In this document: positions 10,333 through 20,000 of the stretch, piece after piece | How the letters are laid out: each line of letters begins with the position of its first letter | How positions within the stretch are numbered: the first letter of the stretch is position 1 | DNA from: an uncultured virus (IMG/VR IMGVR_UViG_2822368973_000001) | Taxonomy: Duplodnaviria; Heunggongvirae; Uroviricota; Caudoviricetes | Strand: one strand, 5' to 3' | IMG/VR virus record: IMGVR_UViG_2822368973_000001 | Location: 50,683-70,682 of that record | DNA length: 20,000 bases | The notes under the pieces: model-generated | What the model was told of the DNA's origin: nothing | Seen by the model: only the letters and a program-made list of their open reading frames with translations | Databases searched by the model: none | Program-made: the position numbers and the translations under genes

Positions 10333-10581
10333 ATGACAATAAAAGGCATAATAATTCAACCGAAAACATTGTATCCACCCGTACAACGTAAACCACAAAT
10401 ACGTAAAGGTTCAAAATTAGAAATTAGTGACATGTATATTACAGGGGTTAGGAAAACTTCTATACGGAAAGGAGTTATGTTTAACTTCTCCCGAAACGAA
10501 AGCAAAACTACTGAAAAAGCAGTAATGAAACCACCACGTACTGAACCACTAGAATACGCGTGGACGAAAATGAACATATAA
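10333..10581 (+). CDS. Small basic hypothetical protein (82 aa)
   Basis: GGTGA RBS; lies directly after the previous stop codon. Confidence 0.65.
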   Translation: MTIKGIIIQPKTLYPPVQRKPQIRKGSKLEISDMYITGVRKTSIRKGVMFNFSRNESKTTEKAVMKPPRTEPLEYAWTKMNI

Positions 10582-10650
10582 CTTTATCGAAATCGAGCGT
10601 GCTGCAGCAGGCTTTTTTATATTGGTCAAAATTTGAAAGGAGGTGAGAAC

Positions 10651-11148
10651 TTGGAAAGAATTCACGAACTCATCAAGGCATTGAATATAAGCGATGTTAT
10701 TACAAGTACTCAATTTAAAGTAGGTGGTGCTATCGGTGGCGGATTAGGAACAATAATTAATTTACTCTATGGCAAAGCTAATTTAATTTGGATTTCAATT
10801 TACTGCTGGATTATCATGCTCGACTGGATTACTGGTAGTAAGGCTTCAAAACTAGATGGAACATACTCATCACAATATGGAATTGAGGGCATCACGAGAA
10901 CCGTGGTGCTTTTATCATTACCAGCCCTTGCACATTTATTTGATATTGCTCTTAAACTACCTGATTTCTTTTTCTTCATGGTAGTCGGTGGATTGAGCTA
11001 CCACATTTTTAATAGTTTCGCAGCAAACTGTGCACGAATTGGCTGGGAAAAATGGATTCCTGCATGGTTATTAGAAAGTGTAGCATCCGAAATTCAAGCA
11101 AAAATCCAAAGAAGTGATGCACGAAAAGAAAAACATAATACCAAATAA
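10651..11148 (+). CDS. Holin, toxin-secretion/phage-lysis type (Phage_holin_4_1-like)
   Basis: GAAAGGAGGTGA RBS then TTG at 10651. Hydrophobic segments, an LDWITG...SS..GIEGI.R signature and a charged C-terminus. Lies upstream of an amidase. Confidence 0.85.
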   Translation: MERIHELIKALNISDVITSTQFKVGGAIGGGLGTIINLLYGKANLIWISIYCWIIMLDWITGSKASKLDGTYSSQYGIEGITRTVVLLSLPALAHLFDIALKLPDFFFFMVVGGLSYHIFNSFAANCARIGWEKWIPAWLLESVASEIQAKIQRSDARKEKHNTK

Positions 11149-11170
11149 AAAATACACGCCTTACATAAGG

Positions 11171-11204
11171 AGAGCATTGTCAAAAGACGGTGCTCTTTTT
11201 GTTT
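11171..11204 (+). terminator. Intrinsic terminator-like hairpin between holin and amidase
   Basis: AGAGCATTGTC-AAAA-GACGGTGCTCT (two G-U pairs) followed by TTTTGTTT. Confidence 0.6.
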
Positions 11205-11226
11205 GGCAAAAAGGGGAAAATACACA

Positions 11227-12285
11227 ATGAAAAAACCAATCAAACTATTTAGCTCATTATTTATGACTCTATTACTCTTATTTTCGTTTGCTACGGCTTC
11301 ATTTGCCGATAGAGTACTAATCATCCAAGACTTACCGAAACAAGCATATCGCTACGGTGTGGGCGCTTATGAGGGCGTTGTAGCACATAGTACTGCAACA
11401 CCAGAAGCACCAGCAATTAATATTAGAAATTACGAAGCTAGAACATGGAGAAATGCATTTGTACATTATGCTGTAGATTGGAACGAAACAATTCAAATTG
11501 CTGATACTAAATATGTTGCTTATGGTGCTGGACCAGCTGCAAATAAAAGATTTGTTCACGTAGAACTTTCTGAAACTAGCAACCCAGATAAATTTAAATC
11601 TTCTTACGAACGTTATGTAAAACTATTAGCTAAGATTTTAAAAGATAGAGGGATTCATCCAAGCAAAGGTTTATGGACACATAAAGATATTACTTACAAA
11701 TTAGGTGGAACTGACCATGAAGATCCGATTAATTATCTTCGCAGTCATGGTGTATCAGAATCACAATTCAGAGCGGACGTACAAAAGGCTTATGAAGGCG
11801 CAACAGTTATAGTTAAACCAAAACCACAAGAACCATCTCAAAACGTTGTAGGCGCAACAGGAGTAGCTTACATTGATGGATTTAACGTAAATCTAAGAAG
11901 TGGACCATCAACAAATCATGGTACTATCCGTCAATTAAATAAAGGGGAATCATATCAAGTGTGGGGAAAACAAGGTGATTGGTTAAATCTTGGCGGTAAC
12001 CAATGGATTTATAACAACCCTTCTTACATTCGATATGAAGGGGAACAAACTAATACTTCAAGTTCTGTAGTAGGAAAACGTGTTGTTTCTAAAGTGGACG
12101 ACCTTCGTTTCTATGACTCTGCTTCTTGGTCTGATAAAGATGTAGCAGGAACGGTAGATGAAGGGCTTGGATTTACTATTGACGCTAAAGTATCAGTGAA
12201 TGGTTCACCACAATACAAAGTACACAACAGTAAAGGCACAACATACTATGTAACTGCAAATGAAGCCTATGTGCATGTAAAGTAG
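11227..12285 (+). CDS. N-acetylmuramoyl-L-alanine amidase (Amidase_2) with Sec signal peptide, SH3b and C-terminal wall-binding domain
   Basis: ATG at 11227. Signal peptide MKKPIK-hydrophobic-ASFA. Catalytic motifs VAHSTAT, FVHYAVD, VHVEL, WTHKDI and TDHEDP. SH3b-type NVNLRSGPST...WLNLGGNQWI. Confidence 0.92.
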   Translation: MKKPIKLFSSLFMTLLLLFSFATASFADRVLIIQDLPKQAYRYGVGAYEGVVAHSTATPEAPAINIRNYEARTWRNAFVHYAVDWNETIQIADTKYVAYGAGPAANKRFVHVELSETSNPDKFKSSYERYVKLLAKILKDRGIHPSKGLWTHKDITYKLGGTDHEDPINYLRSHGVSESQFRADVQKAYEGATVIVKPKPQEPSQNVVGATGVAYIDGFNVNLRSGPSTNHGTIRQLNKGESYQVWGKQGDWLNLGGNQWIYNNPSYIRYEGEQTNTSSSVVGKRVVSKVDDLRFYDSASWSDKDVAGTVDEGLGFTIDAKVSVNGSPQYKVHNSKGTTYYVTANEAYVHVK

Positions 12286-12332
12286 GGGAACCGCCAGCAT
12301 CTTGGAATAAAATCATGCTAAGCAAAAAAATA

Positions 12333-12362
12333 AAATAAGCTGCCCATATGGACAGCTTATTT
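12333..12362. terminator. Bidirectional terminator between the amidase and the convergent small gene
   Basis: AAATAAGCTG-CCCATATGGA-CAGCTTATTT inverted repeat. Confidence 0.7.
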
Positions 12363-12385
12363 ACATAATTATCGTTATTGGAAGT
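12358..12385 (-). other. dif-like Xer recombination site A
   Basis: Minus strand reads ACTTCCAATAA-CGATAA-TTATGTAAATA. B. subtilis dif (recalled) is ACTTCCTAGAA-TATATA-TTATGTAAACT, giving 9/11 and 9/11 arm matches with a 6-bp spacer. Confidence 0.75.
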
Positions 12386-12396
12386 TACTTTTTGTT

Positions 12397-12579
12397 TTAT
12401 TTTTTCTCACTAATTTTAAGTCGTTTTGCATTTATGAAAAATGCGCTCCCAATTACGAATATAACAGAAGAGATATACATTGTTATCCCTGAATATTCAT
12501 TATCAAATATTGTAGTATTAAGCAAATTAACAAACACCATCAATATAAGTGATATGTACAATCCATTAATATATTTCAC
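12397..12579 (-). CDS. Small two-TM membrane protein (60 aa)
   Basis: GGAGGG RBS, GTG start, two hydrophobic helices and a basic tail. An extended -10-like TGGTAAAAT lies upstream. Confidence 0.75.
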   Translation of the reverse strand: MKYINGLYISLILMVFVNLLNTTIFDNEYSGITMYISSVIFVIGSAFFINAKRLKISEKK

Positions 12580-12682
12580 TTATGTCCCTCCCTTACTTTT
12601 TTCTTTTCTTCTTTTTCCCTATTTTACCATTTTAAAAAAGTGATATGTTGTTTGATTTTGGTTGTATATCGTATTCATGTAA

Positions 12683-12711
12683 AGTTAACATAACGTCCTA
12701 TTATCGGTAGC
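12683..12711 (-). other. dif-like Xer recombination site B (7-bp spacer)
   Basis: Minus strand reads GCTACCGATAA-TAGGACG-TTATGTTAACT: 7/11 and 10/11 arm matches to B. subtilis dif, same orientation as site A. Confidence 0.6.
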
Positions 12712-12758
12712 AAGAAAAAGGCGAATTCCTCTTGAAAGTAGGGATTCGCCTTTTTCTT
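12712..12758. terminator. 19-bp inverted repeat, bidirectional terminator-like
   Basis: AAGAAAAAGGCGAATTCCT-9 nt-AGGGATTCGCCTTTTTCTT, one mismatch. Confidence 0.7.
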
Positions 12759-13126
12759 TAATAAGTTTTTATAACCCATAATAACATCTCCATTCATTTG
12801 AAAAAATTATGCTATTTTACCGGTATTTTCTAGCACACTTCCGATACTAACTTACAGAAATCTTAAAATAAACAACTTTCAGATAAAAATATTTACAAAA
12901 CAATTCGACACCCCTTCTAAAAACTATATCCTTACTGGGGTTATAATGATTTTTATATAAATAATTTTATTTTTACAATCTAACGATTTACCGATGTTTT
13001 TACGTCAATTGATAAAGGGAAAATTTAATATTCTGAATATTGTTTATAAAATTGTTTTTTACAACTTATTACAATTAAACTTTGTTATGATTGATTTTAT
13101 ATAAACTAAATAAAGGAGATTGCGAT

Positions 13127-14227
13127 ATGATAATTCTGAATAATGAAAAAGTTACTAGACTATTAAATGAATGGTATAAAGTTATTTTATCTAAACAAAT
13201 AACAAAAGCGACAAGAATGAAAGAAGAAGTTGATGAAAAGATTAGTGTCTTAATGGTCGAACAAAACCGAGATCTACAAGATCAAAATCTCTTATTGTAT
13301 TATTCTCTATTGGATTATAGTTATAAAGTGTTAATAAATAAATCATATGTAACTCGTAGCGATTTTGATGCAGTTGAAAAACTTACAACAAAAACTATTG
13401 ATGAGTATTTAAAATACTACTACCATTTCTATAAAGCTGTGCATAACACCATGATTGCTAACTATATGGAAGCTATGGAGCAATTTGAAGAAGCTGAACG
13501 ACTTTTAGAGTATATTCCTAACGAAATTGAAAAAGCTGAATTTAATTATAAACTTGGTGAACTATATTACCATCTTCAACAACCTTTATTAACAATTAAG
13601 CATGTCATGAAAGCAAAAGACATATACAAAAAGCATGAAGACTATGTAATAAATCAAATTGAATGCGATACAATCCTGGGATTGGCAAGTGTCACTTTAA
13701 GTCAGTTTGAACAAGGAGAAGAACTTTTTGTTAGGTGTTTGGATATGGCTAAAAAACATAACTGTACTCGACTAATTACCTTAATTCAATACAACTTAGG
13801 TTTTCTTTATGCAAAACAAGGTATATCCGCAACTGCAATTCGGCATTTAATGGATGTCTATAAATCTGAGAGACCTTACCATAAAACTGTGTTCTTATTG
13901 GCTCGAGAACATTTCAAAGTAAATGAAATTGAACAAGCACAAGAATTTTTGACTCAAGGTTTTGAATTAGCTGACGTTGAATATACACATCATTTACGAA
14001 TACTTCGAGCACAATACGATGAAAATTATAAGCAGAATCTAGAAACAACGATTGCAGATGGACTAGATTACTTCGAATCCCAAAAACTTTATGGATTTAT
14101 GGAAGAGTACGCTGGAATTTTAGCGAAAAAACTTTATCAAGAAGGTAATCATGAGAAGGCTAGCCAATATTTTAATATATCTTATGATGCTAAAGAATTA
14201 CTTCAGAAGGGAAGTGCGTTAAAATGA
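13127..14227 (+). CDS. rap: Rap-family response regulator aspartate phosphatase (RRNPP, TPR repeats)
   Basis: AAAGGAG RBS, ATG at 13127. LLNEWY, DQNLLLYYSLL, YYYHFYKA and IEKAEFNYK motifs. Its stop overlaps a phr-like gene. Confidence 0.93.
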   Translation: MIILNNEKVTRLLNEWYKVILSKQITKATRMKEEVDEKISVLMVEQNRDLQDQNLLLYYSLLDYSYKVLINKSYVTRSDFDAVEKLTTKTIDEYLKYYYHFYKAVHNTMIANYMEAMEQFEEAERLLEYIPNEIEKAEFNYKLGELYYHLQQPLLTIKHVMKAKDIYKKHEDYVINQIECDTILGLASVTLSQFEQGEELFVRCLDMAKKHNCTRLITLIQYNLGFLYAKQGISATAIRHLMDVYKSERPYHKTVFLLAREHFKVNEIEQAQEFLTQGFELADVEYTHHLRILRAQYDENYKQNLETTIADGLDYFESQKLYGFMEEYAGILAKKLYQEGNHEKASQYFNISYDAKELLQKGSALK

Positions 14228-14439
14228 AAAAAGTACTAATGGGATTTGTTAGTTTTGCTGCTGTTTTAACTATTGGAAGTTTTGCAGAATCTAATATATC
14301 ACAAGCTGATCATGGTAGACCGCCTGCACCACAAAGACCAGATTATATTTCTAATGTGGCCGATTTTGATCACGGTAGACCACCTGCGCCGGCATACGAA
14401 TACGGCGATACTTATATTGATCATGGTGAACATATATAA
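14224..14439 (+). CDS. phr: Phr signalling pre-pro-peptide with repeated putative mature peptides
   Basis: ATGA overlap with rap; MKK plus hydrophobic signal peptide; DHGRPPAP twice and C-terminal DHGEHI. Confidence 0.9.
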   Translation: MKKVLMGFVSFAAVLTIGSFAESNISQADHGRPPAPQRPDYISNVADFDHGRPPAPAYEYGDTYIDHGEHI

Positions 14440-14861: not shown

Positions 14862-15590
14862 CTAAAACTGCTCATTCTTCTCCCAAGATTCAACGATATA
14901 ATGAGCAATTGTGGGGTTATATCCTTTTCCAACTAAAAACATAATCGCAGCGACTTCTGTTAAAGCGTGTTTATGTGAAGTATGTTTCGCTTCATTTAAA
15001 CCATAATCTACCCAAGGTTTTACGAAATCTAATACAGGTTTCTTTAAAGGTAAAAATTGTGTACCGACAACTTGTTGAATTTGTTGTTGAGTCGGTTCTG
15101 TAATAGGCCCAGGTGGTAAAATTTGTGGTTGTGTAATATCTAAAGTCGGACCTGGTGGTAAAATTTGTGGTTGCGTTGGATCAATTGTTGGTGGTTTAGG
15201 TGGTGAGACACGTGCGTCGTAGTTGGGTTGATACATTTGTTGTTGGTATTGTGGTTGTTGTGGCTGAGTTACATACGGATTTTGTTGTTCTTGAGTTTGC
15301 GGTGCTGCATATGGATTTTGAGGATATTCATAATTTGGACGTGTGTCATATGGATTTTGTTGTTCTTGAGTTTGCGGTGCTGCATATGGATTTTGAGGAT
15401 ATTCATAATTTGGACGTGTGTCGTATGGATTTTGTTGTTCTTGAGCTTGCGGTGTAGCGTATGGATTTTGTTCGTATTGTTGTTCTGGCTGTTGTAATTC
15501 TTGTTCCTCATATTGTTCTGTATATCTTTGTTCCGGTTGCTGAGGGTAAAATGGTTGTTGTGGATAAGGTGGTTGATTATTATAGAACAT
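14862..15590 (-). CDS. Pro/Gln/Tyr-rich tandem-repeat protein, probably spore-associated (242 aa)
   Basis: GAAGGAGG RBS before ATG at 15590 (MFYNNQ...). QNPY repeats, TQPQILPPGP repeats and a globular C-terminus. sigmaK-like promoter upstream. Confidence 0.8.
   Translation of the reverse strand: MFYNNQPPYPQQPFYPQQPEQRYTEQYEEQELQQPEQQYEQNPYATPQAQEQQNPYDTRPNYEYPQNPYAAPQTQEQQNPYDTRPNYEYPQNPYAAPQTQEQQNPYVTQPQQPQYQQQMYQPNYDARVSPPKPPTIDPTQPQILPPGPTLDITQPQILPPGPITEPTQQQIQQVVGTQFLPLKKPVLDFVKPWVDYGLNEAKHTSHKHALTEVAAIMFLVGKGYNPTIAHYIVESWEKNEQF
15272..15470. repeat. 75-bp coding tandem repeat (about 2.6 copies), VNTR-like
   Basis: GGATTTTGTTGTTCTTGAG recurs at 15277, 15352 and 15427. The unit encodes QNPYAAPQTQEQQNPYDTRPNYEYP. 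Confidence 0.9.
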
Positions 15591-15623
15591 GTTTATTCCT
15601 CCTTCATGATGATGCCTACCACC

Positions 15624-15652
15624 TAGTGTATGGGCGGACAAGAAAATATGTG
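15624..15652 (-). promoter_or_regulatory. Mother-cell sigmaK(/sigmaE)-type promoter
   Basis: Minus strand reads CACA-16 bp-CATACACTA, matching the sigmaK consensus mACA-N16-CATAnnnTA, about 35 bp upstream of the start. Confidence 0.6.
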
Positions 15653-19903: not shown

Positions 19904-20000
19904 TAAAAGGGGATTTTAAGTAATAGCTTCGGAAAAAATTGTGGAAAGTATTTTAATAAATTTAAAGAAGGGGTACTGTCACATGCCCATCAAGCTAAGA

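Follow-up and report, generated by a model that had tools for sequence, protein, structure and literature searches.

Two dif-like sites as the likely entry and exit of a gene slot in a transposase-free mini-transposon of the Bacillus cereus group

Introduction

How does a single small gene come to lie between two dif-like sites behind a lysis gene, and what moves it? The question is raised by a viral contig of 70,682 bases (IMG/VR IMGVR_UViG_2822368973_000001), of which we analyzed the 20,000-nucleotide stretch from 50,683 to 70,682 (hereafter the window; positions are counted from its first letter unless the contig is named). A preliminary description read the locus as a Xer-mobilized cassette of a Bacillus chromosome, inserted at a hotspot behind an amidase. 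Judged by sequence, that reading is incomplete, in that a Tn3-family repeat at 12285-12322 makes the slot part of a mini-transposon. In our main reading, to which we assign a probability of about 70%, the sites serve as entry and exit for a gene slot that lies in a transposase-free mini-transposon with Tn4430-type ends; the enclosed gene is a cassette, probably exchanged by the host recombinases XerC and XerD.

Such a system would mean that gene cassettes driven by Xer exist beyond Acinetobacter, in a Gram-positive group, and would explain the sharp-ended small accessory genes that are common to unrelated plasmids, prophages, and chromosomes of B. cereus, B. thuringiensis, and B. mycoides. To the question of how a new replicon acquires its first sites, which dif modules have posed, it would offer transposon delivery as the answer. 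The polar pair of 7-bp and 6-bp sites would make the rule of single-module exchange directly testable, and the predicted cointegrate, swap, empty, and hybrid products are all present in public sequence. The well-studied Tn4430 transposase, in turn, would gain a large and so far unnamed set of non-autonomous clients.

Two dif-like sites enclose one small gene

The two dif-like sites described earlier, on the minus strand and with spacers of 6 and 7 bp, are confirmed at 12358-12385 and 12683-12711. They lie in direct orientation, and we call the one with the 7-bp spacer site A, or entry, and the one with the 6-bp spacer site B, or exit. They had been called palindromic; the sites are real, but their 11-bp arms are only imperfectly palindromic. 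The features of the slot are as follows.

12285-12322, plus strand: terminal inverted repeat of 38 bp and Tn3-family type that forms the right end of the mini-element, starting with the G of the endolysin stop codon
12333-12362, minus strand: terminator-type hairpin (13 pairs and a T run) just outside site B, a conserved part of the right end of the element
12358-12385, minus strand: site B, exit dif-like site, with left (XerC-type) arm 12375-12385, 6-bp spacer 12369-12374, and right (XerD-type) arm 12358-12368
12386-12682, minus strand: exchangeable cassette interior, 297 bp, with 25.9% GC versus 37.2% for the endolysin gene
12397-12579, minus strand: cargo gene with a GTG start, for a predicted two-helix membrane protein of 60 residues with two hydrophobic stretches
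12587-12591, minus strand: ribosome-binding site GGAGG, 7 bases upstream of the GTG start
12663-12677, minus strand: palindromic 15-bp box TGWATA-N3-TATWCA, 5 bases inside site A
12683-12711, minus strand: site A, entry dif-like site, with left arm 12701-12711, 7-bp spacer 12694-12700, and right arm 12683-12693
12712-12758: two-way hairpin, the remaining stub of the ≈190-bp left end of the element, whose left inverted repeat is lost

The shuffle comparison suggested in the preliminary description came out in favor of the sites. With up to 2 mismatches allowed, a degenerate two-arm pattern finds five dif-like sites across the 70,682 bases of the contig, whereas 20 dinucleotide shuffles gave a mean of 0.15 and a maximum of 1; the pattern was derived from sites A and B together with the dif sequence of the earlier reader, and the fair count is three further sites against 0.15. 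The ends of the spacers are fixed (T....CG in A, CGA.AA in B) and their middles variable, as would be expected from tyrosine-recombinase chemistry if pairing beside the cuts matters (PMC5357621, in part). A hairpin outside each site was likewise borne out: the one at B, which is of terminator type, has a z score of −4.2 and the one at A scores of −7.4 and −5.7, and none of 200 shuffles equaled either. The flank that carries the site-B hairpin is the same after 116 sites. A search for structured RNA returned eight Rfam matches, every one far under its gathering score.

Nine positions of the 15-bp box are conserved at 85 to 97% across 181 A-type sites, and the box may be a candidate site for an accessory protein or a promoter. 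ARG boxes have a 4-bp center and this box has a 5-bp one, and we did not adopt ArgR as the accessory protein.

Between the two sites lies one open reading frame, of 60 codons. Of the promoter, ribosome-binding site, and membrane gene first assigned to this interval, the GGAGG, the reading frame, and the two hydrophobic stretches stand; the promoter is not supported, as the single consensus match at the cassette start reaches 9 of 12 positions and the region holds 9 matches where 10.9 are expected from shuffles. The cargo protein has 44 homologs, all unnamed or hypothetical except one with a DUF label in its source name. It matches no Pfam family, its single NCBIfam match is weak (SE1626, 19.8 bits versus a cut-off of 70), and its look-alikes in the Atlas are unnamed.

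That this is a mobile single-gene cassette without a recombinase of its own, as first proposed, is supported, and a second copy is known. The interior is identical at 293 of 297 positions to a cassette on the 9.8-kb B. mycoides plasmid NZ_CP136384, where the spacers are different, the flanks are ≈80% identical, and no recombinase is annotated on the plasmid. More generally, a site adjoins the gene in 25 of 30 distinct contexts of close homologs (at least 72% identity) versus none of 21 contexts of distant ones (at most 67%), a co-occurrence that is inflated by the many loci retrieved through site patterns; among close-homolog contexts retrieved by the protein alone, the site stands beside the gene in 14 of 19.

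The slot lies at the lysis end of a prophage

The preliminary description had taken the surroundings for a chromosomal Bacillus locus. A plain chromosomal locus is ruled out by the prophage genes and the 39-bp direct repeat that bounds them: the amidase is a phage endolysin beside a holin, and the slot belongs to a B. cereus-group prophage of ≈55 kb, in which it lies at the lysis end; the window carries the right end of this prophage. From left to right, this end holds tail-like genes, the holin, the endolysin, the slot, a Rap gene with its small partner, and the 39-bp repeat.

10633-11148: holin, directly before the endolysin
11203-12285, plus strand: phage endolysin (Amidase_2 and SH3), from the reading-frame list and a domain match
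13091-14439, plus strand: Rap-family TPR protein and small secreted-peptide-like gene, prophage cargo, from the reading-frame list and a domain match
14862-14900: right attachment site of the prophage, a 39-bp exact repeat of contig position 10440
contig 10568-11704: tyrosine-integrase-like reading frame, so labeled from its sequence alone

The small gene after Rap (14224-14439) contains the motif DHG three times, twice as DHGRPPAP, and is a candidate multi-copy Phr-type signal. The prophage has integrated (14862-15641) at the 3′ end of a gene for a glutamine- and proline-rich protein of 259 residues with no family match, and the 39-bp core restores the end of that gene.

An insertion hotspot behind the amidase, the second part of the earlier claim, did not hold up either. 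Of 381 viral loci that encode a related endolysin we took 80, and among the 73 with at least 100 bases downstream, site B lies behind the endolysin in two (L005 and L006). The other loci mostly have a terminator-like hairpin after the stop codon, where the window has the 38-bp repeat. With only 2 of 73 endolysins followed by site B, the slot is a recent insertion in one lineage rather than a general endolysin feature, and it arrived in the manner of a transposon.

Cargo switches at the sites

Alignment of this locus across strains, proposed earlier as a check, shows gene content switching at the sites (L005 and runs X8, X10, and X14). Locus L005 is identical to the window at 199 of 203 positions up to 12388, three bases beyond site B, falls to background inside, and matches again from 12682. 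In place of the 297-bp interior it holds 964 bp with an unrelated gene for a leucine-rich-repeat protein of 287 residues. It shares the attachment side with the window, its insertion point is identical to the base, and its right end differs at 1 of 73 bases. In one contig of run X14, the stretch between 12390 and 12684 is taken up by 612 different letters, the same joint occurs in X10, and a 17.7-kb prophage contig of X8 diverges from the window at 12387. In runs X1, X3, X5, and X7, the cassette assembles as a separate piece of 358 to 363 bp, which implies that the site regions are repeated in these hosts. The depth of the cassette unitig, which gives no copy number, is close to that of the prophage in X3 and lower in X1, X5, and X7. 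The contigs of the eight runs, which drop rare variants, contain no circle or excision joint of the window's cassette.

Comparison of many slots maps the crossover at B. Where the same cassette occupies different slots (8 families, 50 pairs), the variable positions of the left arm are 0.98 to 1.00 identical, and spacer position 4 is at 0.51 versus a background of 0.48. Where the same slot holds different cassettes (11 families, 33 pairs), the outer markers are 0.91 to 1.00 identical (background 0.49 to 0.78), and the left arm, at 0.60 to 0.75 with a background of 0.49 to 0.73, is not kept. The crossover at B thus maps, on these pair identities, between the left arm and spacer position 4. At site A, the left arm goes with the slot, bases inward of the right arm go with the cassette, and spacer positions 2 to 5 go with neither; the crossover there is blurred. 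We dropped the idea that the site-A spacer always travels with the cassette, as the whole spacer agreed in 9 of 19 pairs with the same cassette and in 5 of 21 pairs with the same upstream side, with a background of 0.20.

The slot is framed by putative transposon ends

The repeat that starts at the endolysin stop codon is identical at 32 of 38 positions to both ends of a 4,149-bp transposon with tnpI and tnpA in three B. thuringiensis plasmids, and the consensus of 33 right ends, out of 115 B sites matched without gaps, agrees with both ends of that transposon at 38 of 38; ungapped matching undercounts ends with insertions or deletions. From its size and genes, tnpI and a Tn3-family transposase gene, we take this transposon to be Tn4430.

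Inverted repeats bound the conserved outer DNA, which extends ≈35 bp beyond B and ≈190 bp beyond A. A second repeat lies at most 330 bp upstream of 48 of 107 first A sites, mostly at 180 to 193 bp, and in 1 of 150 background chunks, where it is the window's own repeat. What is new here is that the conserved flanks of the slot are, by these matches, transposon ends. The left end also contains two mutually inverted 17-bp motifs, derived as a consensus.

Both flanks are visible in 70 elements, and in 18 of them both tips are within 4 mismatches of 16. Five of these 18 intact elements, representing three independent insertions, have an exact 5-bp target duplication, with none at twelve shifted positions. 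The duplication is absent in the other 13, of which five abut an IS231-type end; the remaining unduplicated elements may have been unpaired by single crossovers between elements, with exchange of flanks, or by decay. Intact elements measure 583 to 2,755 bp, and empty ones with both repeats 290 and 293 bp. All are shorter than the 2,964-bp tnpA, so the transposase gene is absent inside them.

The left end of the element is found in 459 plasmid records, 407 of them over most of its length, and in one phage record; the right end is matched in 614 plasmid records. The right end also matches once on records of a ≈182-kb B. anthracis plasmid (81% over 68 bp; H120-H128).

The window's copy keeps the right repeat only. 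Its left repeat is gone, and run X14 contains an additional ≈1.9 kb there. Positions 12741-12758 match both the hairpin of the element and the native region upstream of Rap in L004 and L026.

The window itself ends, at 19969-20000 and just after the chromosomal ssb gene, with the tip of a further transposon repeat and then an IS231-type end. At this position a complete, filled element flanked by a 5-bp duplication is present in two loci (L129 and L143), and in L399 the target is unoccupied and present as a single copy, one base shorter than predicted.

Transposase relatives with an E value of 1e-100 or better occur in 21 of the 104 family genomes that were scored, three of them at 73 to 99% identity with the same repeat, and the transposase gene is present at 99% identity or more in 76 plasmid records. 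Given this scarcity of matching transposases, many copies of the mini-element are probably old and fixed. We found no autonomous parent with the A-side end in 12 transposase loci and eight wider or annotated regions. Another Tn3-family transposon, ≈8 kb long, occurs in two other loci (L324:870-8914 and L325:4007-11621); it has the same terminal repeat and carries a serine resolvase as well as spore-surface and germination genes. The L325 transposase is 79% identical to that of Tn4430, and each of the two elements has one internal dif-like site of another spacer type.

Distribution and order of the sites

A 431-bp region of the locus matched 656 plasmid records at 1,622 places, and 644 of these records are from Bacillus. 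The exact A pattern is present in 64 of 105 family genomes, versus none for the reversed control, and in none of 291 order-level genomes outside the family set, a count in which diverged systems would escape an exact pattern. Sites in records titled Micromonospora, Leifsonia, and Flavobacteriaceae (L118, L125, and L140) include two, on contigs of less than 1.3 kb, that look like Bacillus contamination, not transfer.

Among 132 distinct adjacent pairs of sites on the same strand, which come from 7 to 12 families and are not independent, first A is followed by B in 50, inner A by B in 18, and first A by inner A in eight; B is followed by inner A in two, by B in four, and by first A in none, and the remainder involve unclassified sites. 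Inverted neighbors number 6, against the 132 pairs on the same strand. The slot is polar, with a 7-bp site, cargo, and a 6-bp site in this order, and cassettes range from 291 to 2,807 bp in length. A 7-bp spacer is present at 158 of 161 cassette starts and at none of 116 sites with a B flank, so that the spacer keeps to its right arm; its absence from the latter is consistent with exchange on one side only, the known behavior of cer and CTX phage (PMC9226527, in part).

Rows of several cassettes arise in two ways, through hybrid inner sites or through a conserved linker of ≈57 bp that leads from a B-type to an A-type site. Of 61 inner sites, 27 are of a separate linker type, and 16 show the conserved ≈57-bp linker. 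This linker forms a hairpin and can be seen in L285:3880-3993, L290, L299, L289, and others; another short linker, similar to it, connects B to a third spacer type, the GTGGGG family.

A link to the host Xer system

A TATATA-centered site at 2.56 Mb of a complete 5.24-Mb chromosome, found at the same gene position in a second genome, is taken as the chromosomal dif of the group from its position and form. Compared with it, site A agrees at 11 of 11 positions in the right arm and 8 to 9 of 11 in the left, and site B at 9 of 11 in the left arm and 8 of 11 in the right. Each of five genomes has two genes over the cut-off of the XerD model, the second of which is presumably XerC. On the strength of the arms, we infer that host XerC and XerD act on sites A and B. 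XerCD has been proposed to take part in Cry domain swapping from gene association, in a paper whose accessible part does not contain the words dif and cassette (PMC13730063).

Two other sites deserve mention. In five of five genomes (L149, L156, L157, L160, and L162; for example G001:C1:3677465), a dif-like site with a perfect XerD-type arm lies between two core genes, ≈5 kb from the second Xer gene, and could be a regulatory or XerD-only site. In L163 (G001:C2:4122), a near-copy of the chromosomal dif lies on a second replicon, 59 bp after a degenerate site with a 7-bp spacer; this near-copy is probably a plasmid resolution site.

Mechanism of cargo exchange

The ends, duplications, polarity, breakpoints, and empty and hybrid products are seen in the sequences themselves. 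In the mechanism that we propose, the chassis is a unit of ≈290 bp composed of the left inverted repeat, ≈150 conserved bases, site A, cargo, site B, the hairpin, and the right inverted repeat, and a Tn4430-type transposase would move it in trans. The window's copy landed at the endolysin stop codon and later lost its left repeat through a deletion at ≈18 bp of microhomology. When two slot-bearing replicons meet, recombination of A with A and then of B with B, that is, formation and resolution of a cointegrate, would trade cargo without a free circle. More rarely, A would recombine with B at the edge of the left arm, on the XerC side, to give an empty slot and a reciprocal circle, and such a circle would re-enter at an A site to produce tandem rows.

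We think it close to an even bet that site A, together with the 150 bp that flank its XerC arm, works like cer or psi, so that host Xer rather than TnpI resolves the transposition cointegrate. A more comprehensive proposal, which we put forward tentatively and at somewhat less than even odds, is a system of two tiers, in which the Tn4430-ended mini-transposon would plant a terminator-insulated socket on plasmids, prophages, and chromosomes, and host XerC/XerD would serve both to resolve cointegrates and to exchange cassettes between two non-interchangeable dif-like addresses. The B. cereus group would then share one pool of plug-in genes, in integron-like rows with no integrase of their own.

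An integron-like main route, in which cassettes leave as circles by recombination of A with B and enter at A sites while exchange between like sites is secondary, is unlikely in our view, although both of its predicted products occur. Empty sites consist of the left arm of A with the spacer and right arm of B, and we found four distinct clean cases with both native flanks; in the empty slot L139, the left and right flanks of the filled L127 and L133 are joined exactly at the edge of arm and spacer. The reciprocal hybrid inner sites, with the left arm of B and the spacer of A, occur among other places directly after the same 60-residue gene in L089 and L096. Exchange by XerC alone, resolved by replication, is also known for CTX phage (PMC9226527, in part) and ColE1 cer (PMC5357621, in part). 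The exact empty pattern, however, is present in 5 of 105 genomes versus 64 of 105 for A sites and had no match in viral contigs, the 27 inner sites of the separate linker type do not fit, and replacements of single cassettes predominate, as seen in the 50 pairs of first A and B. Excision is rare by these counts, not blocked. The earlier suggestion that unequal spacers disfavor simple re-excision agrees with the rarity of empty forms, but the spacers do not block it, since precise empty forms exist.

The recombinase need not be that of the host. A 180-residue phage tyrosine recombinase is encoded after ArpU, and its gene ends ≈200 bp before site A in 14 of 27 viral A-site loci; the window's own prophage encodes one (contig 30048-30590), and proteins of this type score as tyrosine recombinases. 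We nevertheless consider it improbable that this enzyme, or another mobile tyrosine recombinase, acts in place of XerC/XerD. Its A-site loci share left and right flanks and thus trace to one insertion, slots on small plasmids, behind chromosomal ssb, and behind the window's endolysin have no such neighbor, the protein has the length of a catalytic domain only and scores far under every Xer cut-off, and the right arm of site A is exactly the arm of dif.

Exchange of cargo by homologous recombination, through RecA or a phage recombinase, would give the dif-like sites another job such as dimer resolution or XerD binding. The ends, conserved over 70 to 190 bp, are long and present in many copies (459 and 614 plasmid records for left and right), and the blurred crossover at site A would suit this explanation. 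At B, on the other hand, the switch falls within the spacer, the left arm going with the cassette and the right arm and hairpin markers with the slot, whereas crossovers in the outer flank would move the right arm and hairpin along with the cassette. Empty and hybrid sites, moreover, are joined precisely at the edge of arm and spacer, and we regard this explanation as quite improbable. The idea that every cargo arrived as its own complete mini-transposon, with the sites as passengers and no exchange of cassettes, draws on the transposon ends and target duplications but is largely refuted and scarcely credible, as the window and L005 share an insertion point to the base yet hold unrelated cargo, and still other cargo occupies this point in X8, X10, and X14.

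Relation to known elements

The closest parallel to the proposed Xer-exchanged slot is found in Acinetobacter, where Rep_3/OrfX plasmids carry dif modules bounded by pdif (xrs) sites and Xer dependence has been shown (PMC13141974, in part). As in the Bacillus slot, XerC- and XerD-type arms of 11 bp bound one or a few genes, and no module has a recombinase; single modules are replaced between sites with matching spacers, for which formation of a cointegrate followed by resolution has been proposed (same source). The Acinetobacter modules alternate in orientation as C and D modules, same-orientation CD modules being exceptional, and have 6-bp spacers (PMC13141974, in part). Bacillus slots, by contrast, are direct and polar, with a 7-bp entry and a 6-bp exit, rows built by linkers, and Tn3-family ends; the host is Gram-positive, prophages and chromosomes are carriers as well, and the role of Xer is deduced. 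Measured as dif modules, they agree with the host dif at 8 to 11 of 11 positions per arm and switch content at the sites, but show neither alternating inverse orientation nor a 6-bp spacer throughout.

The chassis resembles the TIMEs known from Pseudomonas, which lack a transposase, have 38-bp Tn3-family terminal inverted repeats and 5-bp duplications, and carry passenger genes; their minimal form measures 262 bp versus ≈290 bp here. One TIME has its own resolvase and res site, whereas the putatively mobile Bacillus element has dif-like sites and an exchangeable slot instead. The Bacillus family has paired repeats, 5-bp duplications, and no transposase gene, and the window's copy keeps the right repeat (32 of 38). 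Tn4430 shares the terminal repeat of the family consensus (38 of 38), and the same IS231-type end abuts its tips. It differs in having TnpA and TnpI and no dif-like site, and its sequence inside the repeat is unlike the left end of the mini-element.

With cer and psi and with IMEX of the CTX type, the Bacillus sites have in common a Xer core with a center of other than 6 bp and a flank of accessory length, ≈180 bp in cer versus ≈150 bp here, and the hybrid products are consistent with exchange on the XerC side (PMC5357621 and PMC9226527, both in part). Whereas cer needs PepA and ArgR and resolves plasmid dimers (PMC5357621, in part), the Bacillus sites are a heterospecific pair around cargo. 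IMEX integrate at the chromosomal dif; this slot lies in a prophage, and other members of the family are on plasmids and far from dif. Integrons have IntI beside attI; no integrase lies beside the slot, and a recombinase of the 180-residue type (the ortholog from L003) scores 31 bits against the integron-integrase model, whose cut-off is 265 bits. Integron attC sites are hairpins that recombine as folded single strands, and the sites of the slot are dif-like cores of 28 to 29 bp.

Repeats of 100 to 400 bp are also known from the B. cereus group as bcr4 to bcr6 and MITEBth. Among these, bcr5 (310 bp) flanks a gene cluster and is described without inverted repeats, and MITEBth3 is a Tn3-family MITE tied to TnBth1 (PMC3184786, PMC6542083, and PMC6199540, all in part). 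The word Xer is absent from the accessible parts of two B. cereus reviews on these repeats. The empty ≈290-bp element may already stand among the bcr or MITEBth entries, from which it is set apart here by descriptions only, not by sequences. Our literature search, which covered papers outside repeat and MITE listings and supplements, turned up in full texts neither this combination nor B. cereus-group cassettes bounded by dif sites.

Additional occurrences

Genome G000 holds several further sites. Outside its main prophage, after a second ArpU-like gene, a complete row of two cassettes with both repeats occupies G000:C1:1576-3454.

1765: first A site, followed by a gene for 181 residues
2430: hybrid inner site, followed by a gene for 245 residues
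3352: site B

The prophage itself has a solitary B site, together with the right repeat, behind the ArpU and recombinase pair (G000:C1:31958-32059). At 2.7 kb from this lone B, around sporulation-type genes, is an inverted site of another spacer type, GGTTAC (G000:C1:34695-34722), and the same inverted pair is also seen in L211, L215, and L218.
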